Below are positions 48,331 through 59,582 of a stretch of DNA of 64,000 bases, piece after piece; position 1 is the stretch's first letter, and the number at the start of each line of letters is the position of its first letter. The notes under the pieces are model-generated. The model was not told the origin of the DNA. It did not search any database and was given only the letters and a program-made list of their open reading frames with translations. Made by a program: the position numbers and the translations under genes. Source of the DNA: a phage; NCBI GenBank assembly GCA_014161675.1, contig GCA_014161675.1_4760.1. One strand, written 5' to 3'.

Positions 48331-48362
48331 ACGGGGGCTAGTATAAAACTAGTCCCCGTTTG
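48331..48362 (-). terminator. Hairpin between alt and alt-like gene
   Basis: 14-bp stem AAACGGGGGCTAGT/ACTAGTCCCCGTTT; U-rich tract follows on the minus strand. Confidence 0.45.
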
Positions 48363-48385
48363 AGTCAACCATTATTTCTTAAAAA

Positions 48386-50437
48386 TTACATTTTAAATTT
48401 ATCTGGCATTGCGTCTACAGATACCAGATCAGCGATAAGCTGACGTAGAGTTGCCTTATCTGCTTTCTTACGTTCGGTTTTAGCTTCGCTAATGAAGCTG
48501 GAGAAAGACAGGTCAGAAGCAGGTTTAATAACACCTTCACGGATGAATGCATCACCGTCCGCGATCATCTCGCCAGATTCTTGTAATGCTGCCAGTTCAT
48601 TTTTGTTCATAATATGTGCCTCAATGTAATAAGTTTCTTGTGAATCCGTCGATGCCGTAGCACGAGTTACCGTATCAAAGGATAACACAACACCGCGAGG
48701 AAGTAAAATCTCGCATTCTTTGTAAGCAAATGCTTTGTTACCTACTGGCAATACAGGGATGTTTTCCGCGCCAGCAATGGAGAAAGCAACATTAGCGCCA
48801 CCTTCACCGCGAGAGCCAGCCATAGAGTCAACACCAGCAACGGCACTAGCCACGTTTGCATTCCAGCCGCCAAAAATGTTAGGTGCAAGGGAAGTGCTCA
48901 CATAGTTTTTAAAGTAAAACGCTTTTTGCTTACGTGCAGTTTCCCACATTTGCGACCGGAAGTCCATACCACGATACAGAATAGTACCCGGATCAAGTTT
49001 AACGCCATAGTTGGAGAAGGCATTATCCAGTGCATCGCACATCTTGACCAATTCTTCTGGATCTGCGATGCCTTCAAACTCTTCCAGCTTACGGTCGGTT
49101 AGGAAGTTGTTCATATTGATGTATGCTGCATCGGCATATTCGCTCAACACAAAACCTTCCGCGCCTGGCAGATCAAGATCAATATCTGCCATCATTTCAC
49201 CCATGTTGCTAGCAATTGCTTCAAACATACCGGAGGCAACATTACGTAGGGCATCGGTTTTAATCTGGGTGATATGACTACGCAGCATTTCAGCTTTTAC
49301 ATCTGCTGGCATAGACTGGTCTACTCGATCCATTGCCAGGGCGGTGATCTTGTTTTCGAATACTTCCTCGCTCATGATTTCTTTTAAGCGTTTGACCGAG
49401 GCTGCGATAACTTCCGCAGACAATGGATCATATTGATCCTGAACTTTTACCAGTTCGCTTACTGCGTATTTTGCATCGGCTTCGCTTTCAAAAATAGTAC
49501 GCATGAAACCATAGCGAGTGATAATATCACTTGTCCAGTCATTCAGAGAACGAGCGGTTGAACGTTCTAAGGCTTGACGGTCAATCAGAGTATTAAACTG
49601 TTTCTTAGGTTCTGCTTCGGTGATATCTTCTTCCGGTTTAAGATTAATTTTTTCTGGATGATTCACATAGTCGCTGTTATAGGTCGCTTGAGTTTTCAGC
49701 ATTTCTTCTTTAGTCAAACGAGATTTAGCCGCTACGCGTTGTTCTGCTTCCGCGTTTCGTTCTTCTTCTGACACAAGACTAGCCGCATATGCCTCATCTT
49801 TAGTCAGAGATTCACCAGTAGCCTTAGATACCCAGCGATCACCTAAATCACTTTCTACTTTAGTGAACAAGGATTCATCAAGTTTAATCCCTTTAATCTT
49901 ATCAATCGCCATCCCGCGACGCTTGACAACAACTAAAGCGATCTTTTTGCTGGTCATTACTTCCTGCTGGAATACTTCAAACTTCGGTGTACGACGCACC
50001 AAACGCTCTATAACGCGCTTAACCAGTTCGGTCTTACCTTTCATGCGGGATACGTTAAAACGGAACATAACAGCGTCTAATTGCGCTTTACGGGCTGTTT
50101 CCATAACCACATCAAAAGCACTTGACATAACTGCAATCGGGTTATCGCCTAGACCATTTTTAAGCTGTACAATACGACCGCTTTTGTTCATTTCGCACAG
50201 TACAACATGTGCGGTCTTGTCACCCATACGAATGATTTTAGGTGTTTTGTTGGTGAAGTTACAAAGACGGACAATCACATCTTTATCGCGTGTCTGTACT
50301 GCAAAAAGCTGTTTAGGATTCTGCTTAGGCTTTAAGCACTGTACCGGAGCAATCCTGCCAAAGTTTTCTTCCTCTTCCGTCAACAGCCATTTCTCGAAAG
50401 ATTCAATCATTAGATCGTCGATTTCTAAGTTAAACAT
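48386..50437 (-). CDS. alt: Alt ADP-ribosyltransferase
   Basis: 683 aa (T4 Alt 682); 'ILYRGM', 'YVSTS', 'ECEILLPRG'. Confidence 0.8.
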   Translation of the reverse strand: MFNLEIDDLMIESFEKWLLTEEEENFGRIAPVQCLKPKQNPKQLFAVQTRDKDVIVRLCNFTNKTPKIIRMGDKTAHVVLCEMNKSGRIVQLKNGLGDNPIAVMSSAFDVVMETARKAQLDAVMFRFNVSRMKGKTELVKRVIERLVRRTPKFEVFQQEVMTSKKIALVVVKRRGMAIDKIKGIKLDESLFTKVESDLGDRWVSKATGESLTKDEAYAASLVSEEERNAEAEQRVAAKSRLTKEEMLKTQATYNSDYVNHPEKINLKPEEDITEAEPKKQFNTLIDRQALERSTARSLNDWTSDIITRYGFMRTIFESEADAKYAVSELVKVQDQYDPLSAEVIAASVKRLKEIMSEEVFENKITALAMDRVDQSMPADVKAEMLRSHITQIKTDALRNVASGMFEAIASNMGEMMADIDLDLPGAEGFVLSEYADAAYINMNNFLTDRKLEEFEGIADPEELVKMCDALDNAFSNYGVKLDPGTILYRGMDFRSQMWETARKQKAFYFKNYVSTSLAPNIFGGWNANVASAVAGVDSMAGSRGEGGANVAFSIAGAENIPVLPVGNKAFAYKECEILLPRGVVLSFDTVTRATASTDSQETYYIEAHIMNKNELAALQESGEMIADGDAFIREGVIKPASDLSFSSFISEAKTERKKADKATLRQLIADLVSVDAMPDKFKM

Positions 50438-50483
50438 TTTATATCCTCTAGTTGATAACCTATAAACCTATATTTATGAAAAA

Positions 50484-50498
50484 GGGGCTTAACGCCCC
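50484..50498 (-). terminator. Terminator hairpin (minus strand)
   Basis: GGGGC-ttaac-GCCCC; U-run on the minus strand; downstream of ORF 50508-50720. Confidence 0.45.
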
Positions 50499-50507
50499 CC
50501 CCATTTA

Positions 50508-50720
50508 TTATAATGCACCATCGAGCAATTGCTCTAAGGTGTATCCTGAATAGTCTTTTTCAATCAGGGTATATTTTCCTACTCGTTTAATCCAGCCACG
50601 CATTTCAACGTATTCTGCGTAGTTGATGGTGCGCGTTGTTCCATCTTCCAGTAATGCAGTACCGATTTCGTTAATGCGGTCATAAGTTACGTCGGTAATG
50701 ATGATTTCGATGTTAGCCAT
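50508..50720 (-). CDS. hypothetical early protein
   Basis: 70 aa behind promoter/leader unit 1. Confidence 0.5.
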   Translation of the reverse strand: MANIEIIITDVTYDRINEIGTALLEDGTTRTINYAEYVEMRGWIKRVGKYTLIEKDYSGYTLEQLLDGAL

Positions 50721-50756
50721 TTGATACTCCTTAGTAGTTCGTTTCGGTATGGGTGT

Positions 50757-50785
50757 ATTATGATATACACCATCTGTTATGTCAA
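50757..50785 (-). promoter_or_regulatory. Early sigma70-type promoter unit 1
   Basis: Minus strand TTGACA, 17 bp, CATAAT; inverted repeat GGTGTAT/ATACACC spans the -10. Confidence 0.5.
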
Positions 50786-50791
50786 CAACTT

Positions 50792-50971
50792 TTAGAACAT
50801 TTTTGAAATTAATTCTGCTTTGATTTCGCAGAGAACATCTAAAGATTTCTCGTCACCCGCTTTTGCTGCTTCTGCTTGCATTTTTGAAATGGCTTCAATG
50901 TCAGTGCAATTATAAGCCGCTTGAACTTTAGCGATTGCGATGATTGCCGATTCGATGGTTAAGTGTTTCAT
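50792..50971 (-). CDS. small hypothetical early protein (59 aa)
   Basis: Hand-translated 'MKHLTIESAIIAIAKVQAAY...'; behind promoter unit 2; below the ORF-track cutoff. Confidence 0.45.
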   Translation of the reverse strand: MKHLTIESAIIAIAKVQAAYNCTDIEAISKMQAEAAKAGDEKSLDVLCEIKAELISKMF

Positions 50972-51003
50972 GTTTGATTCTCCTTTCGTTTCGGTATGTG
51001 TGT

Positions 51004-51032
51004 AGTATAGGGGATCACCGATCCCCTGTCAA
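51004..51032 (-). promoter_or_regulatory. Early promoter unit 2 with palindromic spacer
   Basis: TTGACA, spacer GGGGATCGGTGATCCCC (17-bp palindrome, two GATC), TATACT. Confidence 0.55.
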
Positions 51033-51040
51033 CAACTTTT

Positions 51041-51559
51041 TTAGTTATTTTTTAATTGCTCATCTTGCAATAGGGCAATCACATGCTGGCGATGTTCTTC
51101 CGATTGAGGCACACCGAAAAAGTTTGTTTTGTAGAAATACTCTAATCGGTCTTCTCGTGTGCTCTCTTCCATCATGATCGCGGGTAGTCCGAGATTTCGG
51201 AAACGTCGCTTTTCTGCTGGCGTAAAATCACTGTAATACAACATAGAATCATCATTACCAGCAATGCTAAACTCATCCTTCATAAAGGAGAATATTGCGT
51301 TTAAACGCTGTTTACCGTCCACGATTTCGATCTCATAGCGAGAGCCATCATCAATCTTAGCCATTGCGATAGCACCAACCGGAAAATCATTAATCAGGTT
51401 TTCGATAAACATACGTTTGTTTTCTGTGTCCCATACTAAAGGACGCTGATAATCTGGGTTCATGTTGATATAGCCATCTTCTAACCACGCCTCATAAACA
51501 GAGATTACAAAGTTTTTAGTATTGGTATAGTAACGGCGTTTAGGTGTTAAACGGTTCAT
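51041..51559 (-). CDS. DUF262 / ParB-like (GmrSD N-domain-like) protein
   Basis: 'YQRPLVWDTENK...IVDGKQRLNAIFSFM' resembles the DUF262 DGQQR region; ATG 51559 with AGGAGA RBS preferred over TTG 51595. Confidence 0.5.
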   Translation of the reverse strand: MNRLTPKRRYYTNTKNFVISVYEAWLEDGYINMNPDYQRPLVWDTENKRMFIENLINDFPVGAIAMAKIDDGSRYEIEIVDGKQRLNAIFSFMKDEFSIAGNDDSMLYYSDFTPAEKRRFRNLGLPAIMMEESTREDRLEYFYKTNFFGVPQSEEHRQHVIALLQDEQLKNN

Positions 51560-51560
51560 G

Positions 51561-51893
51561 TTATAGTCTCCTGAATGGATCATCACGTAAATCAATATCT
51601 TTTAAGAACTCATCCCATGAATGGCGGATATTGTTCTTAATTCTCCAGATAAGAGCAGGGATTGAACGCTCTCCCATCTGGAAGTATGGATCATATGATC
51701 CGTATGCCCAATATGCTACTACAATTCCACAATCAGCGCAATAGTATTCTATTTCACTTGCTGGCGACCAAAGTCCATCAATATGATCGGTGATCTTGCT
51801 TTCGATGTTATGGCTATGACAATCAGGGCAACGGATGCAATGACCTTGTTTATCGTAATTTGACGTTAGCGAATACTTAAACAATCTCATCAT
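51561..51893 (-). CDS. zinc-ribbon protein
   Basis: 110 aa with 'CIRCPDC' and 'CADC' Cys pairs. Confidence 0.5.
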   Translation of the reverse strand: MMRLFKYSLTSNYDKQGHCIRCPDCHSHNIESKITDHIDGLWSPASEIEYYCADCGIVVAYWAYGSYDPYFQMGERSIPALIWRIKNNIRHSWDEFLKDIDLRDDPFRRL

Positions 51894-52606
51894 AGATCCT
51901 TATTTGCTTCAAATACTGCCTTTGCGAATCCTCGCGGGGTAAGTGACCTGATAGTCTTTGTTTTCGTTCCTTTCCCGCCTAGCTTAGAATGCTGTTTACT
52001 GTACCCTTTATTAATCTGCAACGGTTTCTTTTCTGGCATTATAAAGCCTTGTCCGGTCCATAAGCAAGTCTTTTTCGGGTACATATCACGGGCGGCGATA
52101 TACTCAGGAAAAGTAGGATGTTTATCATCTTCCGGCAAATAACCGCCATATTCCCACGGGTGGAACATGTAATCAGGCTTACGCCACATGCTAGAGATAA
52201 CGCTTACAGGATTCTCTATCATGTAGGGAACTCCTAGCCATTCACCCAAATAAGCGGTTATTTTAGCTGCCCTTACATCATGAACTTGAATCAATGGTCC
52301 TTGTTCTCGTTTCTTTCGTTCAAAGTGTGCAGCGCCACTAACAGCTAAATTGGTGCACGGTGGGAATGCAAAGATAATATCCGGTTTCCCCCATTCAAGG
52401 TCCATTGCTCTTTCCAGCCAATTCAAATCAATCCAGGTGTTTACATAGGTAATGTTTGGATGTTCAAATCTGGTATTATACTTTTTGTATGTGCCGTGGT
52501 CGCCATCATCAGCATTAAAGCAGATCACCTTATGACCTGCTTTAGCCCATTCTAGCCCCATTATCCCCGATCCGTCAAAGTTACAGAATATTAATTTTTG
52601 TTTCAT
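51890..52606 (-). CDS. compact C5-cytosine methyltransferase-like protein
   Basis: Motif I 'LIFCNFDGSGIMG', motif IV 'FAFPPCTNLAVSG', motif VI 'MIENPVSV', motif X-like 'IRSLTPRGFAKAV'; only 238 aa. Confidence 0.55.
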   Translation of the reverse strand: MKQKLIFCNFDGSGIMGLEWAKAGHKVICFNADDGDHGTYKKYNTRFEHPNITYVNTWIDLNWLERAMDLEWGKPDIIFAFPPCTNLAVSGAAHFERKKREQGPLIQVHDVRAAKITAYLGEWLGVPYMIENPVSVISSMWRKPDYMFHPWEYGGYLPEDDKHPTFPEYIAARDMYPKKTCLWTGQGFIMPEKKPLQINKGYSKQHSKLGGKGTKTKTIRSLTPRGFAKAVFEANKDL

Positions 52607-52848
52607 ATACGCCCCTTTAATCCAACACAGATTTTAGAAGGTTCTTTGCCGTGCCACATTAAGTAAAGTCCGTTAATGCGGCCTTGTTTTGTATATGATT
52701 CTTTTCTGATCTTCTTATAGTGTCGTGTTTCCTCAACTGATTGTTTAGAATACCAATCATAAAGGAAGAGGCACAAAGGCCAACCATTAGCGGCCTTAAT
52801 GCAGTTATTAAGAAATTCCTTATTGCGTTTAATTAATTTTCTTTTCAC
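52603..52848 (-). CDS. hypothetical protein
   Basis: 81-aa ORF in operon; start overlaps upstream stop. Confidence 0.45.
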   Translation of the reverse strand: MKRKLIKRNKEFLNNCIKAANGWPLCLFLYDWYSKQSVEETRHYKKIRKESYTKQGRINGLYLMWHGKEPSKICVGLKGRI

Positions 52849-53096
52849 GCTGCCCCCATTGGTTTGATAGTAACAGAATCTAAAAGACCTTTGTTAGCCA
52901 GTTCGCGGCAAGTTTTCAGATCCGCAACTTCCCAGCCAGCCGCAATCAGGTTATCAATCAGGCTGTTAGCAACTTCTTCGCTCATGAAAGAGCACTGTTT
53001 GCCGATGGTGTAGCGTACACGCTGTAATTTCAGTTTACGGAAGCCTTTAACGTTCAGGTCTTTAGCGATTTTCTTTGCGGTTTCGATGTTAGCCAT
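52845..53096 (-). CDS. hypothetical protein
   Basis: 83-aa ORF, first gene behind promoter unit 3. Confidence 0.5.
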   Translation of the reverse strand: MANIETAKKIAKDLNVKGFRKLKLQRVRYTIGKQCSFMSEEVANSLIDNLIAAGWEVADLKTCRELANKGLLDSVTIKPMGAA

Positions 53097-53136
53097 TGTT
53101 TGATTCTCCTAAGTGGTATCTCGTCTTGATGGTTGT

Positions 53137-53165
53137 ATTGTAGGGGAGTTATCCTCCCCTGTCAA
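53137..53165 (-). promoter_or_regulatory. Early promoter unit 3 with palindromic spacer
   Basis: TTGACA, spacer GGGGAGGATAACTCCCC (17-bp palindrome), TACAAT. Confidence 0.55.
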
Positions 53166-53179
53166 CACTTTTTATAAAA

Positions 53180-53347
53180 TTATTTGTTAATTTCTGGTGC
53201 GTTGCTAGGATAGTAACCTTCTTTAACTCCGAGGTATTTCGCAACCATCCCTACAATCTTCTGTGCTACTACAATGTCAAATTTCAGATAATCTTCGCCG
53301 TGGGTTTCAATGATATATGCTTCACATGCTGCTTTAGTCTCGAACAT
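53180..53347 (-). CDS. small early protein (55 aa), paralog of 56438-56605
   Basis: 'MFETKAACEAYIIETHGEDYLKFDIVVAQKIVGMVAKYLGVKEGYYPSNAPEINK'; below the ORF-track cutoff. Confidence 0.55.
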   Translation of the reverse strand: MFETKAACEAYIIETHGEDYLKFDIVVAQKIVGMVAKYLGVKEGYYPSNAPEINK

Positions 53348-53380
53348 TTTGATTCTCCTATTTCGTTTCGGTATGTGTGT

Positions 53381-53409
53381 ATTATAGGGGATCTCCTGAT
53401 CCCCGTCAA
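53381..53409 (-). promoter_or_regulatory. Early promoter unit 4
   Basis: TTGACG, palindromic spacer GGGGATCAGGAGATCCC, TATAAT. Confidence 0.5.
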
Positions 53410-53423
53410 CAACTTTTTTAAAA

Positions 53424-53705
53424 TTATTCGTGATTAGTTTCGATGTTGTGCATTTTGCACCAGTTCAGCCAATCACCCAGATCCTGATAGCTAATGCTTT
53501 TATCTGCTGCCATCGTTTTTGTCTTGATACCCATATGTGCGTTATGAGTAAGCATTTTTACAGTGAACTCAATTTTATCACCTTTAGCTTTAACATCAAC
53601 CAGTTTGGTCCACTGGCTACCAGCGCCGCGAATGTTCATACCAACGATGTTTCCGATGTATGCTTCTTTGTTTTTCAGGATTTCGGTTGCTTTGATGAAT
53701 TTCAT
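53424..53705 (-). CDS. hypothetical early protein
   Basis: 93-aa ORF behind promoter unit 5. Confidence 0.5.
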   Translation of the reverse strand: MKFIKATEILKNKEAYIGNIVGMNIRGAGSQWTKLVDVKAKGDKIEFTVKMLTHNAHMGIKTKTMAADKSISYQDLGDWLNWCKMHNIETNHE

Positions 53706-53738
53706 TTTTGATTCTCCAGTTCGTTTCGGTATGTGTGT

Positions 53739-53768
53739 ATTATGCTATGTTCTTACTTTGGTGTCAAC
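53739..53768 (-). promoter_or_regulatory. Early promoter unit 5
   Basis: TTGACA, about 18 bp, CATAAT, conserved leader ACACACATACCGAAACGAACTGGAGAATC. Confidence 0.5.
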
Positions 53769-53775
53769 AACTTTT

Positions 53776-54045
53776 TTAGATATTTTCAGAAATAAATTTT
53801 AAAACTTGACGTAAATGTTTCTCATCTTTGATGGTAGCCGGAAGTTCTTCTTTTACTTCCTGTGCAAGATAGATATTTCCGTTCCAAGTGAAAGATCCGT
53901 CTTCGTTTACGCGATAGCTGAACATCCACTCGCAATCATTTTCGATTTCATATACACACAGAAGGGTGTAATCGTTAAAGCTATTGATTTCAAGGTCGAA
54001 GCCGTGACGTTTTGCAAAGTTGGTAGTGGTTTTAGTCAGTGTCAT
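53776..54045 (-). CDS. hypothetical early protein
   Basis: 89-aa ORF behind promoter unit 6. Confidence 0.5.
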   Translation of the reverse strand: MTLTKTTTNFAKRHGFDLEINSFNDYTLLCVYEIENDCEWMFSYRVNEDGSFTWNGNIYLAQEVKEELPATIKDEKHLRQVLKFISENI

Positions 54046-54085
54046 TGTTTGATTCTCCTAAGTGGTATCTCGTTTCGATGTGTGT

Positions 54086-54114
54086 ATTATGCTATAGGCC
54101 GGATCTGGTGTCAA
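54086..54114 (-). promoter_or_regulatory. Early promoter unit 6
   Basis: TTGACA, 17 bp, CATAAT. Confidence 0.5.
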
Positions 54115-54170
54115 CAACTTTTTTAAAAATTTGGGCAATAAAAAGCCGACACTAAGGTCGGCTAATAAAA

Positions 54171-54479
54171 TCATTTAGACAAATAATCATTCTGTGCAAT
54201 CCGGTCAGCATGTTCCGGCGTTACGTCAATCGCAATCACTTTAACGCGTGCTTTCTTGCGACCTGGGTTTTCTCGTAACCAGTGCTCATGACCGTGAACA
54301 TTTTTATACTGCGATGCTTCTTCGAAGGTACGGATCGGACCTGGGTAATCAGCGTAAAGGATCTCTAGATCTTCGGTGATGTAAAAATATACATCGTAAT
54401 TGCTGTTCTCTAGCTTAAGCAGAGACTTTCGGAACATTGGGAGATTTTCGCGGGTAAATTCAAAGATATTATCTTTCAT
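54171..54479 (-). CDS. HxHW-family small protein (paralog 1)
   Basis: 'FYITEDLEI...HGHEHWL...VIAIDV'; GAGGATAA RBS. Confidence 0.55.
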   Translation of the reverse strand: MKDNIFEFTRENLPMFRKSLLKLENSNYDVYFYITEDLEILYADYPGPIRTFEEASQYKNVHGHEHWLRENPGRKKARVKVIAIDVTPEHADRIAQNDYLSK

Positions 54480-54507
54480 AGTATTATCCTCAATAGTTGG
54501 ATGAAAA

Positions 54508-54524
54508 GGGGGCTTAACGCCCCC
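54508..54524 (-). terminator. Terminator hairpin (minus strand)
   Basis: GGGGGC-ttaac-GCCCCC; same core as hairpins at 16583 and 50484. Confidence 0.4.
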
Positions 54525-54529
54525 ATATA

Positions 54530-54817
54530 TTAAAACAGCCCTTCCTGTACACCGTAGTAGAGTTCGTCACTGATAATTTCATTAATGCGACGGTGTGCAT
54601 ATTCCTGATTTGCGAAGTTGTCAGCAAGTTCTACTTTAGTTTCGCCGTCATGAGTCCATTTAGTGATAACTTTACCATCTGCAAATTTGAAGTTGAACTC
54701 TTTAGCTACTGCATCGCGTACCAGACGTGCGAACTTGTTGTTACGGATTGCATTGTCTGTTTCGTTTGCAGCGTGAGCAAATTTGTTAACTTTCAGAGTG
54801 ATAGTAATGTATGCCAT
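54530..54817 (-). CDS. hypothetical early protein
   Basis: 95-aa ORF behind promoter unit 7. Confidence 0.5.
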   Translation of the reverse strand: MAYITITLKVNKFAHAANETDNAIRNNKFARLVRDAVAKEFNFKFADGKVITKWTHDGETKVELADNFANQEYAHRRINEIISDELYYGVQEGLF

Positions 54818-54863
54818 AATTTGATTCTCCTAGTTAGAAAGTGTATATCGTTTCGATGGGGAT

Positions 54864-54892
54864 ATTATGCTATATCCCCGATCCGGTGTCAA
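54864..54892 (-). promoter_or_regulatory. Early promoter unit 7
   Basis: TTGACA, 17 bp, CATAAT; inverted repeat GGGGATAT/ATATCCCC spans the -10. Confidence 0.5.
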
Positions 54893-54898
54893 CACTTT

Positions 54899-55192
54899 TT
54901 ATAAAATAATTTTTTGATATTTTTCTATGATGTTCGTGTAAGTCACATCAACCGCTAGCACCGTTGCTTCGAATCCACCGTTTAGCCAATGGCTATGATC
55001 ATGATCGTGAAAGAAACCTAGACCAGTACGAAGACCTTCTTTATATTCTGCGCGTACATTCAGTTTGTCGTCGATAAACAGATAAAACCATGAATTTTTA
55101 CTAGGATTGATGATACAACCTTTCAGATTAGGGAGAATATCACGACTAAGAATAAACTTATCACCTACTTTGAACATAATATTAGTCCTCAC
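54899..55192 (-). CDS. HxHW-family small protein (paralog 2)
   Basis: 'FYLFIDDKLNV...HDHDHSHWL...VLAVDV'. Confidence 0.55.
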   Translation of the reverse strand: MRTNIMFKVGDKFILSRDILPNLKGCIINPSKNSWFYLFIDDKLNVRAEYKEGLRTGLGFFHDHDHSHWLNGGFEATVLAVDVTYTNIIEKYQKIIL

Positions 55193-55502
55193 TTATAAGG
55201 TCAAACCAATTGTTTTTCGCATAATGCTTAATGCGTGCTTGATCTGCTTCCGCTGGTGATAGATTCCATGCAACCACTACAACTTCTGACGCATCGTCAT
55301 CCGTTTCTGATACCCAATGATTGTGATTCATACAGTTATTTGCTATCGAGTGAGCAAATGATTTCATCACTGGAGACGTATAATCATAGTAACGGATTTT
55401 CAGATTTTCATCAACGTACAAATAGATCGTATAAGGTTTATATTCAGTAACCAGTAACAGACAGTTACGCAATTCTGGGAAAATATTTTTAGTTAATTTC
55501 AT
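55182..55502 (-). CDS. HxHW-family small protein (paralog 3)
   Basis: 'YLYVDENLKI...NHNHWV...VVVVAWNL'. Confidence 0.5.
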   Translation of the reverse strand: MKLTKNIFPELRNCLLLVTEYKPYTIYLYVDENLKIRYYDYTSPVMKSFAHSIANNCMNHNHWVSETDDDASEVVVVAWNLSPAEADQARIKHYAKNNWFDLISED

Positions 55503-55716
55503 ATTCTAGTTCTCCGTAATACACGGTAATCCATTTTTCTTCATACTTTGTATCTTTCCAACACACAATCCCGTTTACTGTGCAATCTTTGGAATTGACG
55601 AATGATTCATATTGTTCTGCATCTTCCATCATTGCATGAGCGGTCTTTTCATCGAATATATCGCAGATCGCTTTATATGCTCGATAATCTTTAAATTTGC
55701 TCATAATTAAGACCAC
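55489..55716 (-). CDS. small early protein, tandem duplicate A
   Basis: 'MSKFKDYRAYKAI...MMEDAEQ...GIVCWKDTKYEEKWI' paralogous to the adjacent ORF. Confidence 0.5.
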   Translation of the reverse strand: MVLIMSKFKDYRAYKAICDIFDEKTAHAMMEDAEQYESFVNSKDCTVNGIVCWKDTKYEEKWITVYYGELEYEIN

Positions 55717-55922
55717 TCAAGAGTTTTTGAAAACACATCTATCCATTGTTGAGTATATGCGGTTTCTTTCCATGATACAATACCAGTCGAATAATGGTTT
55801 TTGTTTCCAGAAAAGGACGGGCATTTTGAGGCATCTTCCATCATCTTTTCGGCGAACTCTGGTGCGTATACTCGCAGGATCTGTTGATATGCTTTGTATT
55901 CTTTAAATTTGCTCATAATCAT
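55707..55922 (-). CDS. small early protein, tandem duplicate B
   Basis: 'MSKFKEYKAYQQI...MMEDASK...GIVSWKETAYTQQWI'. Confidence 0.5.
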   Translation of the reverse strand: MIMSKFKEYKAYQQILRVYAPEFAEKMMEDASKCPSFSGNKNHYSTGIVSWKETAYTQQWIDVFSKTLEWS

Positions 55923-56181
55923 TCACTACCTTATCAGCTTCTTTTGTTGTTTTTACATCAACTGCGATAACTCGTAAAGGTTCGTCATGGTTCCACCAGT
56001 GGTCATGAATATCAGCTTGTGATTTATCACCAAAGGAATCACGAATATCATTTTTACATTTATAGCTAATGTGACCTTCATAGTCAACATAAAGGTAATT
56101 ATCGAAAATCGGCGTTTTTAAGATCATACCGAAAAATCTTTCTTTGTGTGTCTTATCCAGCGTTGCAGTAATTCGCATCAT
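55903..56181 (-). CDS. HxHW-family small protein (paralog 4)
   Basis: 'YLYVDYEGHI...HDHWW...VIAVDV'. Confidence 0.55.
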   Translation of the reverse strand: MMRITATLDKTHKERFFGMILKTPIFDNYLYVDYEGHISYKCKNDIRDSFGDKSQADIHDHWWNHDEPLRVIAVDVKTTKEADKVVNDYEQI

Positions 56182-56193
56182 AATATATTCCTC

Positions 56194-56373
56194 TTAGAAA
56201 GGGATGGTCATTTCTTGAGCTTGTACGTTCTCGTTAGGATTAAACTTCATCCAGCCGATATTGTCTACCAGCATATGCACATTTTTATCATATCCTACGT
56301 GGGTAGTCAATACTGTATGTGCTTTACCTTCAATGATGAGTTCCATGTACTTCTGAACTTCGATAGCTTTCAT
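56194..56373 (-). CDS. small hypothetical early protein (59 aa)
   Basis: Hand-translated 'MKAIEVQKYMELIIEGKAHTVL...'; behind promoter unit 8. Confidence 0.4.
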   Translation of the reverse strand: MKAIEVQKYMELIIEGKAHTVLTTHVGYDKNVHMLVDNIGWMKFNPNENVQAQEMTIPF

Positions 56374-56405
56374 TTTGATTCTCCGTTTGTTGTCTTGATG
56401 GGAGT

Positions 56406-56434
56406 ATCTTACTACTCCCTTTAATCATTGTCAA
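56406..56434 (-). promoter_or_regulatory. Early promoter unit 8
   Basis: TTGACA, 17-bp spacer with GGAGTA/TACTCC inverted repeat, TAAGAT. Confidence 0.45.
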
Positions 56435-56437
56435 CTA

Positions 56438-56605
56438 TTATTTGTTAATTTCTGGTGCGTTGCTCGGATAGTAACCTTCTTTAACACCCAGATATTTTGC
56501 GACCATTCCGGTGATCTTCTGTGCTACTACGATATCGAATTTCAGGTAATCTTCACCGTGGTTTGCTACAATGTATGCTTCGCATTCTGCTTTAGTCTGG
56601 AACAT
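56438..56605 (-). CDS. small early protein (55 aa), paralog of 53180-53347
   Basis: Internal ATG at 56605 gives 'MFQTKAECEAYIVANHGEDYLKFDIVVAQK...', near-identical to the 53180-53347 product. Confidence 0.55.
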   Translation of the reverse strand: MFQTKAECEAYIVANHGEDYLKFDIVVAQKITGMVAKYLGVKEGYYPSNAPEINK

Positions 56606-56638
56606 TTTTATTCTCCCATATCTCGTTGGTATGTGTGC

Positions 56639-56668
56639 ATTATAGGGGATCACCGATCCCCTGTCAAC
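56639..56668 (-). promoter_or_regulatory. Early promoter unit 9 with palindromic spacer
   Basis: TTGACA, GGGGATCGGTGATCCCC, TATAAT; spacer identical to units 2 and 10. Confidence 0.55.
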
Positions 56669-56672
56669 AACT

Positions 56673-56966
56673 TTATAATGCTTTATATGCGTATTTCATA
56701 AATTTGTCTGCCACTTCATTGGCATGTTCAGATTCTACGCCTGATTCGAGAACAATAGCTAGGTCGGTTTCGTCATTCCCGCCGTACCAATGATTTGATG
56801 TTCGATTTTTTTCAATTGGAAATTGGTCACTTTTATCTGTGCGACAAAATACATCTAAATGCTCGTCGATGTAAAAGATCCAATCTTCATAAAGAATAAC
56901 GGTATTAGCCAGATTTTTATTGCCTTCAACGAAAGGTTCGGCTACAAACAAATTAGTATGTTCCAT
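56673..56966 (-). CDS. HxHW-family small protein (paralog 5, divergent)
   Basis: 'IFYIDEHLDV...SNHWY...LAIVLESG'. Confidence 0.45.
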   Translation of the reverse strand: MEHTNLFVAEPFVEGNKNLANTVILYEDWIFYIDEHLDVFCRTDKSDQFPIEKNRTSNHWYGGNDETDLAIVLESGVESEHANEVADKFMKYAYKAL

Positions 56967-57023
56967 AGTATTTTCCTCAATTTGTGGGAGAGTATTGCCC
57001 CTCCCGATGTCTGTTATATTACA

Positions 57024-57344
57024 TTACACAAAATGGCGTTTCAATGCTTCTTTTGCGGTTCCGCTAAGACTTTCGATCTCGCCTGGCATAACATCAACTG
57101 CCAGAACTTCTACAACATCCTCTGACCCCAACCAGTGAGTATGACCTTTGTAGAACTTGATAACCAGACTACCTTCCTCATCCCATTTAACGCTATCGCT
57201 AGCCCACCACACATCACCGTCGATAAAGTTGATGTAAAGCACACTACGCCACATTGAATTAATTACTTTCAATACTGCGCCTTTCATATCTTCCACGGTG
57301 TGGTCTTCCATTTTGAAGACCTCGCCTACCTGAACTTTTGCCAT
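57024..57344 (-). CDS. HxHW-family small protein (paralog 6)
   Basis: 'LYINFIDGDV...GHTHWL...VLAVDV'. Confidence 0.55.
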   Translation of the reverse strand: MAKVQVGEVFKMEDHTVEDMKGAVLKVINSMWRSVLYINFIDGDVWWASDSVKWDEEGSLVIKFYKGHTHWLGSEDVVEVLAVDVMPGEIESLSGTAKEALKRHFV

Positions 57345-57361
57345 TTAGTCACCTCTCTTTA

Positions 57362-57541
57362 TTACATAACAATCACGCCAGCCGTTGAAAGTTGATGTTT
57401 CAACTGAGCATTTTCTGCTACTGTCAAATCAATGATTTCTTGTGACGCTGCAATCATATAGCCATTGGTGATATTGTTTTGCATCAGTTCAATGGTTTCT
57501 TCGTTGTAGCGGATTTTAGCGATGATTTCGTTGAAGTTCAT
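57362..57541 (-). CDS. small hypothetical early protein (59 aa)
   Basis: Hand-translated 'MNFNEIIAKIRYNEETIELMQNNITNGY...'; behind promoter unit 10. Confidence 0.4.
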   Translation of the reverse strand: MNFNEIIAKIRYNEETIELMQNNITNGYMIAASQEIIDLTVAENAQLKHQLSTAGVIVM

Positions 57542-57575
57542 GTTTGATTCTCCTAGTTCGTTTCGGTATGTGTGT

Positions 57576-57604
57576 AGTATAGGGGATCACCGATCCCCTG
57601 TCAA
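57576..57604 (-). promoter_or_regulatory. Early promoter unit 10 with palindromic spacer
   Basis: TTGACA, GGGGATCGGTGATCCCC, TATACT; conserved leader to AGGAGAATCAAACATG. Confidence 0.55.
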
Positions 57605-57616
57605 CAACTTTTTGAA

Positions 57617-58093
57617 TTATTTTTCTTGATGCTCGCGATCGTACTTTTCGAAATAAAATTCTACTGGCTGGTCGTGGATTGACAGCAAGCCAAAGCGTTT
57701 AGCCGCTCGCAATCCCATATTGCGCTGAATGTACTTCTGGAAGTTCTCGCGTATACACTTACGCCAGGATTCTAAGCCCATGCAGCTTTTATAAAGATTG
57801 CATTGCACACACGCCGGATTCATGTTATCAAGTATATCATGCTCCGGTTTATGCATTCCTACAACCTTATACTTCCACGATCCATCATCATTACGGGCAA
57901 TTCGTCCATTTTCATCATAGACTACCTTTGAGCGTCGCAATACTGGTTTGATGTGGTCTGCGTGCCAGCGATCCCCTAGTTCCTCGCCACAATAGGCACA
58001 ACGTCCACCATATTTCATTTTCAGGATCTGGCGTTGATCTTTCTTTGACAATTTTTTAGGTTTAGGGGCTTTCGCCCCTTCATTATCACACAT
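57617..58093 (-). CDS. HNH endonuclease (putative free-standing homing endonuclease)
   Basis: 'CAYCGEEL...HADHIKP...N...CVQCN' HNH/zinc motif; start overlaps ligase stop. Confidence 0.65.
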   Translation of the reverse strand: MCDNEGAKAPKPKKLSKKDQRQILKMKYGGRCAYCGEELGDRWHADHIKPVLRRSKVVYDENGRIARNDDGSWKYKVVGMHKPEHDILDNMNPACVQCNLYKSCMGLESWRKCIRENFQKYIQRNMGLRAAKRFGLLSIHDQPVEFYFEKYDREHQEK

Positions 58094-59582
58094 CGAATAC
58101 CTCTTTTACTGTATTTGCAGTGGTCTTGTCGTAGCGAATACGTTTGATGATTGGGAGAAATAAAGAGAACTCCGGTTCATCTTCTTTACGTGATTTGCTG
58201 CGGATATACCCGTTGCATGTCATCTCAATGACTTTGCCAACCAGGTTATGACGGTCAGCCCATAACATTTCTCGGTCGAGTTCATTTCGACGAACGAACG
58301 GAATTACACGTTCAGTACCATCATCACCTTTTTCGGTTGTAGTGTCGGTTAATCCCGATCCGGTGTTAGTCATCATTCGTCCGCACGCACTACGGACAGT
58401 AAAACCGCCTACCTTATTGGGGTCTTTACTATGCGGATATACGTCAACAATTTCCGCGTCGAAGTCAATCACTTCTTTAAATTTAACCTGATCTTTACTA
58501 CGGCGATCTTCAAATACACCATGTAAATTTTTAAGGATAATACCTTCTAAGCCCATGTTGACATAACGATGATATACTTCGCGAGCTTCATCGATATTGT
58601 TAACTACAGTATTTTCGATTATCTGAACACGAGGATCGTTAAGTTCTTCAACAATCTGTTTTAGTTCTTCGAATCGATCTTTATATTGCTTCGTTGCTTT
58701 CTCGTTTCCATAATACACATCACGGTCGATAACATCCCAGACAGTGTAAACAATACATTGGGCTTCTTCTTTTGGAATAGTTCCTTTAAGTGATTTGTTG
58801 AGGATACCATTTCCGGTCTGACGATCTGCAACAACGGATTCTTTCACTGCTTCCGCTACTGGCGTTAATGGCATTTCCTCTTCTTCAAATATCCATGACA
58901 GAGTACCATCATAAACGCTCTCAACGAAGTTCTGCGCTGGTGTTTGCGAAAGGGTAGGCATATATACCAATTCGCCATCTAGAACAATTCCACGGCCTCG
59001 TAGACGCTCTAAAACCGCAAACAAATCATCAAGCCCTTGATAGGTATTACCTGAGCGGGTATAGATTGCTAATGTTTCCCCGTCAATATCAGCCATACCA
59101 CGAGCGCCATCGCTTTTAAGTTGTGCATACGCCGGATACTTGATATTAGCAATAGTCTTATCAGAACATGACGATGCAAGGTGGCACGGCTGCTGGGGGA
59201 TCAGTTTCTTCCATACCTTGTTTGCAGTGGTAGCTGAACAGCCGCATTCCAGATCACGATTCAGGACCATCATTGCAACTTTAGCATCATCCTCTGACAA
59301 GCAAGTCAGAGTATCGGTAACTAGCTGTAATGCTGCATTACCAGTTACTTGACGCGTGGCAAGTTTATTTTTAAAGACCTGTAATGCACCGGATAAAGAT
59401 AATACAGACGAATAGCGAGATGGTTTATCGTATTTCTTTACGCCAAACGTAACCTGTTTGCAATATGCCAGATAAAAGCATTCTTTCAGCGTTTCATTGC
59501 TCGCGGATTCTTTCAGAATCTTTTCTTTCAGCGATGTTTTGTCTGTTGCTGCAAGCTGATTAATGATATTAAGAATTGACAT
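58086..59582 (-). CDS. 30: ATP-dependent DNA ligase gp30
   Basis: 'AQLKSDGAR' (KxDG adenylation motif), 'LDGELVY', 'EGIILKN', 'VKFKEVIDFD' collinear with T4 ligase; ATG 59582 preferred over GTG 59588. Confidence 0.85.
   Translation of the reverse strand: MSILNIINQLAATDKTSLKEKILKESASNETLKECFYLAYCKQVTFGVKKYDKPSRYSSVLSLSGALQVFKNKLATRQVTGNAALQLVTDTLTCLSEDDAKVAMMVLNRDLECGCSATTANKVWKKLIPQQPCHLASSCSDKTIANIKYPAYAQLKSDGARGMADIDGETLAIYTRSGNTYQGLDDLFAVLERLRGRGIVLDGELVYMPTLSQTPAQNFVESVYDGTLSWIFEEEEMPLTPVAEAVKESVVADRQTGNGILNKSLKGTIPKEEAQCIVYTVWDVIDRDVYYGNEKATKQYKDRFEELKQIVEELNDPRVQIIENTVVNNIDEAREVYHRYVNMGLEGIILKNLHGVFEDRRSKDQVKFKEVIDFDAEIVDVYPHSKDPNKVGGFTVRSACGRMMTNTGSGLTDTTTEKGDDGTERVIPFVRRNELDREMLWADRHNLVGKVIEMTCNGYIRSKSRKEDEPEFSLFLPIIKRIRYDKTTANTVKEVFDV

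Follow-up and report, generated by a model that had tools for sequence, protein, structure and literature searches.

The DNA analyzed here is a 64,000-nucleotide stretch of a phage genome (assembly GCA_014161675.1, contig GCA_014161675.1_4760.1), hereafter the window. Its minus strand carries, between positions 50719 and 57622, exactly ten intergenic regulatory units of approximately 85 bp each. These units very probably belong to the PeSLs (promoter-early stem-loops), a class of composite regulatory cassette known from phages RB49 and phi1, and they occupy the hyperplastic region that separates alt from gene 30 (DNA ligase). The element has been described before, and the present locus is the orthologue of phi1 ORF185-ORF212, its type example; no new kind of element is described. 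The window is a clean PeSL example, in which units form the joints of three cassette deletions, of one insertion, and of a duplication in cis. It also provides two modest increments, namely a RegB/S1-like 11-mer strictly coupled to the units and a hairpin present in both orientations at orthologous sites. Both of these would refine the picture of how cassettes are switched off and recombine.

The region shares 95-97% identity with Krischvirus genomes, among them ELT4, ELT3, JEP8, GEC-3S, and phi1, which are relatives of RB49, and it is collinear with the phi1 interval named above. On this similarity, the source genome is assigned to Krischvirus as an RB49/phi1-type T4-like phage. PeSLs were named and defined in RB49 and phi1 by Arbiol, Comeau, Kutateladze, Adamia and Krisch (2010, Genome Biol Evol 2:140; PMC2839356). 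As defined there, a PeSL consists of an AT-rich tract that includes the stop codon of the preceding gene, sigma70-consensus promoter boxes, a stem-loop, and then a Shine-Dalgarno (SD) sequence and ATG. The stem-loop often contains polyG followed by polyC, lies mostly between -35 and -10 or over the latter box, and is frequent rather than universal. The same authors counted 52 PeSLs in phi1 and 51 in RB49, mainly upstream of ORFans in hyperplastic regions, and used the alt-gene 30 interval for PeSL193/192, 206/205, and 211/210. PeSL-like units form a genome-wide family in phi1, and the GEC-3S record already has promoter, -35, and -10 features annotated at the orthologous sites.

Organization of the units

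In each unit, an A-tract and TTGAC(A/G) are followed by a 17-bp spacer, then by a -10 hexamer and a leader rich in C and A, and finally by GGAG(A/T)AU(C/A)AA and the ATG. A promoter scan lists all ten, with -35 hexamers starting at 57604, 56667, 56434, 54892, 54114, 53767, 53409, 53165, 51032, and 50785, and the units are named here by these positions (U57604 to U50785). In all ten, the spacer is 17 bp, and 10-12 of the 12 positions in the -35 and -10 hexamers agree with the consensus. With up to two mismatches allowed, AAAAGTTGTTGACA has 11 matches in the window against 1.2 expected, a count reached by none of 100 shuffles. When the units are aligned from A-tract to ATG, mean column identity is 70%, and the blocks that do not vary are GTTGAC, A and T in the -10 hexamer, CAT in the leader, and GGAG.AT.AAA. 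An nhmmer profile built from this alignment recovers the same ten units (E 6e-22 to 4e-11) and gives no further match at E<=10 in the whole 64-kb window.

The upstream gene ends, in the units checked, with a stop codon 3-12 nt 5' of TTGACA within A/T-rich sequence, as in TAAAGTTGTTGACA at U56667 and TAATAGTTGACA at U56434. GGAG precedes the ATG by 6-9 nt in all ten units, and is used by just 2 of the 14 internal genes of the region. The first downstream open reading frame (ORF) encodes 55-95 amino acids (aa), and by PHROGs comparison these ORFs fall into families of unknown function. These features support the view that the units are repeated sigma70-type early promoter, leader, and ribosome-binding-site modules in front of small early ORFs.

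An initial annotation of this DNA had described ten minus-strand units of a single plan, all of which were found again. Some of its details required adjustment. It allowed spacers of 17-18 bp, of which only the shorter length occurs. It placed each unit before an ORF of 55-106 aa; small ORFs do follow, and those of 106 aa are second genes of operons. The single conserved leader that it described is shared by the units and divides into two subtypes in the alignment, ACACACATACCGAAACGAA... and ATC(G/A)A(A/G)ACGAGATACCACTT... Its account of the palindromes, one of them identical in three units, five in spacers and others across the -10 hexamer, was confirmed.

Five units have the hairpin in the spacer, and three of these share the sequence GGGGATCGGTGATCCCC. 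U57604 (57540..57622; all coordinates of units and their genes refer to the minus strand) has its -35 hexamer at 57604-57599, the hairpin at 57598-57582, the -10 hexamer TATACT at 57581-57576, the SD GGAGAATCAAA at 57553-57543, and its ATG at 57541; it lies at the ORF210 locus and drives a 59-aa ORF (57362-57541). U56667 (56606..56685), the orthologue of phi1 PeSL206/205, has a TATAAT ending at 56639 and the SD GGAGAATAAAA at 56616-56606, and drives a 55-aa ORF (56438-56605). The third, U51032 (50970..51049), has a TATACT ending at 51004 and precedes a 59-aa ORF (50792-50971). U53409 (53348..53428) combines the -35 hexamer TTGACG, the hairpin GGGGATCAGGAGATCCCC, and a TATAAT ending at 53381 in front of a 55-aa ORF (53180-53347). 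U53165 (53097..53184), with the hairpin GGGGAGGATAACTCCCC and a TACAAT ending at 53137, precedes an 83-aa ORF (52845-53096) and also drives the downstream operon as far as 51041.

In three further units, the inverted repeat spans the -10 hexamer. U56434 (56374..56453) has a TAAGAT ending at 56406 within GGGAGTA/TACTCCC and drives a 59-aa ORF (56194-56373). In U54892 (54819..54909), GGGGATAT/ATATCCCC encloses a CATAAT ending at 54864, and the ORF encodes 95 aa (54530-54817). U50785 (50719..50804) has GGTGTAT/ATACACC across a CATAAT ending at 50757, the SD GGAGTATCAA, and a 70-aa ORF (50508-50720) as its cargo. The remaining two, U54114 (54046..54132; CATAAT ending at 54086; 89-aa ORF, 53776-54045) and U53767 (53705..53786; CATAAT ending at 53739; 93-aa ORF, 53424-53705), have no hairpin.

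A further PeSL-like promoter is present at 48340-48368 (minus strand), upstream of a second Alt-like gene. It combines TTGACT, a 17-bp spacer, and TATACT with a hairpin, ACGGGG.../...CCCCCGT, that spans the -10 hexamer and is followed by a real T-run, and it is conserved in relatives. The ten-unit profile gives no match there.

Cassette gain and loss at the units

A blastn comparison of the interval 50300-58300 with seven relatives identified six cassette-sized insertions or deletions, four of which have their junctions inside units. As the units cover approximately 11% of the region, a rough binomial estimate gives a probability of about 0.002 for at least four of six junctions falling within them by chance. 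While the initial annotation recognized the promoter, leader, and ribosome-binding-site plan, it missed this published role of the units as recombination joints in cassette shuffling.

The window's own cassette content lacks homologues of ORF210 and ORF207. The ORF210 cassette was lost at U57604, with window 57526-57630 aligning to both of the units that flank this cassette in phi1, GEC-3S, JEP8, and ELT4; U57604 is a chimera of the two phi1 flanking units and thus marks the deletion junction. The ORF186-homologue cassette (50792-50971) is absent from PHB13 and JK32, where the junction corresponds to U51032/U50785 and the chimeric unit has U51032 as its left parent. The ORF191-homologue cassette (53180-53347) is absent from JK32 and Brandy, which instead have a single chimeric unit with U53409 as left and U53165 as right parent. 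These junction units are chimeric base by base, with one parent contributing the upstream flank and hairpin and the other the leader, which places the crossovers between hairpin and leader. Arbiol et al. mapped crossovers to the hairpin-leader zone too (PMC2839356). The fourth event is an insertion of approximately 410 bp, containing two ORFs, in JK32 and Brandy. It is flanked by copies of U54114 together with the intrinsic terminator directly upstream of it (54144-54163), which was duplicated along with this unit at the JK32 insertion.

The two other events did not involve units. All seven relatives have ORF207 (192 bp), which is missing from the window, and the junction is a repeat of about 17 bp containing an SD and ATG; short non-PeSL repeats therefore also mediate cassette loss. 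JK32 (L004 4839-4854) lacks the ORF189.1 homologue found at window 52603-52848, a deletion that likewise did not proceed via a unit.

Other rearrangements and repeats were observed in the same region. A module of one unit plus its 55-aa ORF occurs twice in the window, at 53180-53430 and 56438-56688 (minus strand). The copies are 86% identical, correspond to the homologues of phi1 ORF191 and ORF205, and are homologous from the A-tract to the stop codon. PHB13 (L003 9838-10601) has an extra 345-bp ORF with a unit of its own, between the ORF210 homologue and the HNH gene. There is also a second repeated translation-initiation element, ATTGAGGA(A/T)AATACTATG, at 56964-56981 and 54477-54494 (minus strand), each copy of which is preceded by a GC-rich hairpin; this element is the repeat of about 17 bp at the ORF207 junction.

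Structural constraint on the stem-loops

Eight of the ten units contain a perfect G...C stem of 7-8 bp, and perfect stems of at least 7 bp are expected in only 0.03 units on the basis of shuffles (maximum 2). Hairpins at orthologous positions were tabulated for eight genomes. In the unit preceding the MNFNEI ORF, four different spacer hairpins occur among these genomes: GGGGATC-GGT-GATCCCC, GGGGATC-ACC-GATCCCC, GGGGATC-GGGA-GATCCCC, and GGGGAG-GTTAAA-CTCCCC. At the U54892 site, before the MAYITI ORF, GGGGATAT/ATATCCCC in three genomes is replaced by GGGTGTAT/ATACACCC in five, a difference of two compensated pairs. Hairpin variants are thus swapped at orthologous sites of genomes that are about 95% identical, and their place shifts between the spacer and the -10 hexamer, with pairing kept in every case. 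As sequence, loop, and position vary while pairing stays, selection appears to act on the structure rather than on a binding sequence. An IMG/VR scan for the hairpin promoter returned two contigs only, which were of no use for analyzing covariation more widely.

This pattern bears directly on two functions that the initial annotation had proposed for the palindromes. If they were operators for a dimeric DNA-binding regulator of phage or host that switches the early promoters, the perfect 7-bp half-sites with a 3-nt center found between the -35 and -10 hexamers of four units would be ideally positioned for a repressor. Arbiol et al. also speculated that GGGG...CCCC is the target of a DNA-binding protein, but for recombination rather than regulation (PMC2839356). 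There are, however, at least six different half-sites (GGGGATC, GGGGAG, GGGGATAT, GGGTGTAT, GGGAGTA, and GGTGTAT), sometimes at one orthologous site, and the element moves by 8-10 bp relative to the hexamers depending on which of its two positions it occupies. Loop length ranges from 3 to 6 nt, two units have no such element, and no candidate regulator was identified. With only complementarity preserved, a single-strand structure is indicated. An operator function is very unlikely, and we rejected this candidate given that half-site sequence and position are both variable among orthologues.

The second proposal, that the paired GATC sites make promoter activity dependent on Dam methylation, finds some encouragement in the two GATC sites within the spacer of four units and in the fact that phi1 encodes its own Dam. 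But GATC is not unusual in this DNA, with 395 sites in 64 kb (observed/expected 1.10), and in the units (10 in 890 bp) it is less than twice as dense as in the background. Four of the ten units have no GATC at all, and orthologous units swap GATC hairpins for GATC-free ones, such as GGGGAGGTTAAACTCCCC in ELT4 and PHB13; methylation sensitivity is thus not a property of the family. In addition, with Dam supplied by both phage and host, methylation of the sites would be uniform. A Dam-sensitive promoter is accordingly rejected as extremely improbable on both GATC statistics and orthologous variation.

One hairpin variant was observed in both orientations. The 17-bp sequence GGGGATC-GGT-GATCCCC or its exact reverse complement GGGGATC-ACC-GATCCCC occupies three orthologous positions among the eight genomes. 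In the window, these are 57582-57598, 56645-56661, and 51010-51026 (minus strand); orthologues are at L001:7687, L006:10187, L005:11332, L007:10580, and L002:10693. Template switching on a folded DNA strand would be expected to produce such inversion of a whole hairpin, which recombination between units would then spread.

Translation initiation and putative RegB cleavage

The SD sequences are nearly uniform, being GGAGAAUCAAA in eight units, GGAGAAUAAAA in U56667, and GGAGUAUCAA in U50785. They resemble the 11-mer targeted by T4 RegB with S1, GGAGRAYARAA, whose optimum is GGAGAAUAAAA (PMC1702504). U56667 matches this 11-mer at 11 of 11 positions and eight units match at 10 of 11, with C at position 8. 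When the pattern is relaxed to GGAGRAYMRAA, in which position 8 is A or C, there are nine matches in the 64-kb window against 0.58 expected, and all nine are in units. The coupling extends to phi1, where 9 of the 10 copies of the relaxed motif in the 62 kb outside the region directly follow a unit promoter.

Neither regB nor dam was found in the window, as they are located elsewhere in the genome, and the presence of regB in this exact genome is inferred from the 95-97% identical relatives. Among these, phi1 encodes a protein (phi1p094) that matches the Pfam family REGB_T4 (E 1e-48). RB49 RegB is reported to be divergent in sequence yet able to cleave in vivo (PMC3014915).

Two interpretations of the conserved GGAGAAUCAAA are evenly balanced in our assessment. 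The leaders may be cleaved by RegB, or the motif may be just a strong ribosome-binding site with an A-rich enhancer that binds S1 and is left uncut by RegB. The latter gains from the C at position 8: this position is strongly A-biased among T4 RegB substrates, cleaved RNAs have almost no C in their A-rich part, and in the poorly cut T4 gene 1 RNA both position 8 and position 10 are C. GGA plus an A-rich or ACA motif is also a general S1 target in translational enhancers. Set against this are the near-complete identity of the SDs to the T4 11-mer (perfect to the optimum in U56667), the restriction of the relaxed motif to units here and its location after unit promoters in phi1, and the reported activity of the divergent RB49 enzyme. 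RegB, GATC, and the flip in hairpin orientation are not mentioned in the PeSL papers.

Proposed function and its assessment

The features described above suggest how a PeSL would work. Just after infection, host sigma70 RNA polymerase would use the near-consensus -35 and -10 hexamers, their 17-bp spacing, and the upstream A-tract, with transcription starting about 7 nt after the -10 hexamer in ACACACA; both steps have been demonstrated for orthologues. One wild-type PeSL206/205 clone gave approximately 13,000 Miller units in a lacZ fusion, and most of the other clones had point mutations in the -35 or -10 box (PMC2839356). The G-poor, unstructured, C/A-rich leader and the SD GGAGAAUCAAA would then cause the first small ORFan to be translated strongly. 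The hairpin, when present in read-through RNA of the upstream unit, may act as an attenuator or a 3'-end structure that insulates the cassettes from one another, as a reporter assay showed for one RB49 stem-loop. The likeness of the SD to a RegB/S1 site may give each cassette a built-in early shut-off. Finally, the approximately 85 bp of shared sequence allows the phage recombination machinery to cross over between units, such that cassettes of unit plus ORF are deleted, inserted, or duplicated, as demonstrated here by comparative genomics.

Several observations weigh against parts of this interpretation. A literature search found no Krischvirus transcriptomics. The hairpin is missing from U54114 and U53767, and from these units in any of the eight genomes that carry them. 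As two of the six indels (ORF207, ORF189.1) did not use units, these are the preferred joints rather than the only ones, and recombination, rather than selection on the leader, could passively keep the units similar. There is also no U-tract behind the unit hairpins, which are GC-rich and followed by UAUA(A/C)U or AUCGAAAC, with 1-3 U in the 10 nt after the stem. A terminator scan calls none of them, though it found two canonical terminators in the region: AGCCGAC...GTCGGCT followed by TTTTT at 54144..54163 (minus strand), directly upstream of the hairpin-less U54114, and GGGGGCGTTAAGCCCCC followed by TTTT at 54508..54524 (minus strand), after the 95-aa ORF. We thus rejected the unit hairpins as canonical intrinsic terminators. 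An attenuator or insulator role is retained on the basis of the published assay in which the PeSL211/210 stem-loop lowered lacZ expression to about the extent that the rrnB T1 terminator did (PMC2839356), so a terminator role depends on this one reporter construct. Furthermore, since each hairpin lies upstream of the start site of its own unit, it can act as RNA only on read-through transcripts from the upstream unit; otherwise, it must act at the DNA level.

It is possible, though rather unlikely, that the hairpin functions mainly in DNA, where an extruded hairpin or cruciform would be used by a structure-specific enzyme (e.g. gp49 endonuclease VII) or by a stalled replication fork to initiate cassette recombination. 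At three orthologous sites the hairpin is found either way round, the loop reading GGT or ACC, which is a signature of template switching on a folded DNA strand and is consistent with extrusion of DNA. Moreover, the mapped crossover of one RB49 mini-circle fell inside the loop (PMC2839356), phi1 encodes endonuclease VII, and the missing U-tracts fit a role outside RNA. Conversely, the crossovers observed here lie between hairpin and leader rather than in the hairpin, one deletion occurred at a plain 17-bp SD repeat without a unit, and the hairpin-less U54114 takes part in an insertion. Stems of 7-8 bp are also short for cruciform extrusion, and T4-type recombination needs just short homology. 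A composite model, in which the PeSL is a self-limiting early-expression module (the SD GGAGAAUCAAA serving as a RegB/S1 site) whose hairpin extrudes in DNA in vivo and is linked to the start of recombination, is put forward only tentatively, as we judge it more doubtful than probable. If it were true, any ORFan captured behind a PeSL would gain automatic RegB-dependent early shut-off.

Cargo genes and other features

A scan of 48-60 kb with Rfam found no known RNA family, with only a chance match to snoU54 (E 0.4). Among the cargo ORFs, functional matches in Pfam and PHROGs were limited to HNH, GmrSD_N, zinc ribbon, and DNA methyltransferase. Three of these occur in the operon behind U53165 (51041-52606, minus strand), which encodes a DNA methyltransferase (phrog_757, no Pfam match), a zinc-ribbon protein, and a protein with a GmrSD_N/DUF262 domain (Pfam E 4e-20). 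The last of these has a nuclease-like domain that is unusual for a phage early region and is possibly linked to anti-restriction or modification. Separately, GGCC is strongly depleted in the whole window (29 observed against 76 expected, observed/expected 0.38), which suggests avoidance of a GGCC-specific restriction system.

Six small ORFs of 92-106 aa form a weakly similar paralogous family with 16-26% identity, an invariant H-W, and a (V/I)xA(V/I)DV-like motif. They are located at 57024-57344, 56673-56966, 55903-56181, 55182-55502, 54899-55177, and 54171-54479 (minus strand), and have no match in Pfam.

Relationship to known systems

The units share several features with T4 regulatory elements. 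Like T4 early promoters, they are strong host-sigma70 promoters with an A-rich upstream element, located in front of small nonessential early genes; they differ in the -35 element, which is TTGACA here and GTTTAC in T4. Their leaders resemble T4 RegB/S1 substrates in having a GGAG SD followed by an A-rich heptamer, whereas position 8 is C here and A in T4, and cleavage at the unit leaders is putative. To our knowledge, RB49 lacks a MotA/middle-promoter system.

Parallels can also be drawn with mobile gene modules outside the T4-type phages. As in integrons, small ORFs are arranged as discrete cassettes bounded by a conserved sequence capable of forming hairpins, and circular cassette intermediates have been reported for PeSLs. 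In RB49 and phi1, recombination between PeSLs gives rise to insertions and deletions as well as mini-circles of ORF192 and ORF210 (PMC2839356). The units nevertheless differ from integrons in having no dedicated integrase or attC-type site-specific recombination; with crossover intervals in shared sequence, exchange appears to be homology-driven. They also differ in that every PeSL cassette has its own promoter, which integron cassettes do not. In this regard, they resemble the morons of lambdoid phages, which carry their own promoter and terminator.

Comeau et al. 2014 broadened the PeSL concept to T4/PST and KVP40/nt-1. PeSLs are among the few documented mechanisms that let T4-type phages swap accessory genes while regulation stays intact. 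The units of the window share with them the AT-rich tract with its stop codon, the sigma70 promoter, the GN-loop-CN stem-loop, the SD and ATG, the ORFan cargo, the location in a hyperplastic region, the indel junctions, and the chimeric units. Nothing essential differs, and it is the content of the cassettes that is this genome's own.

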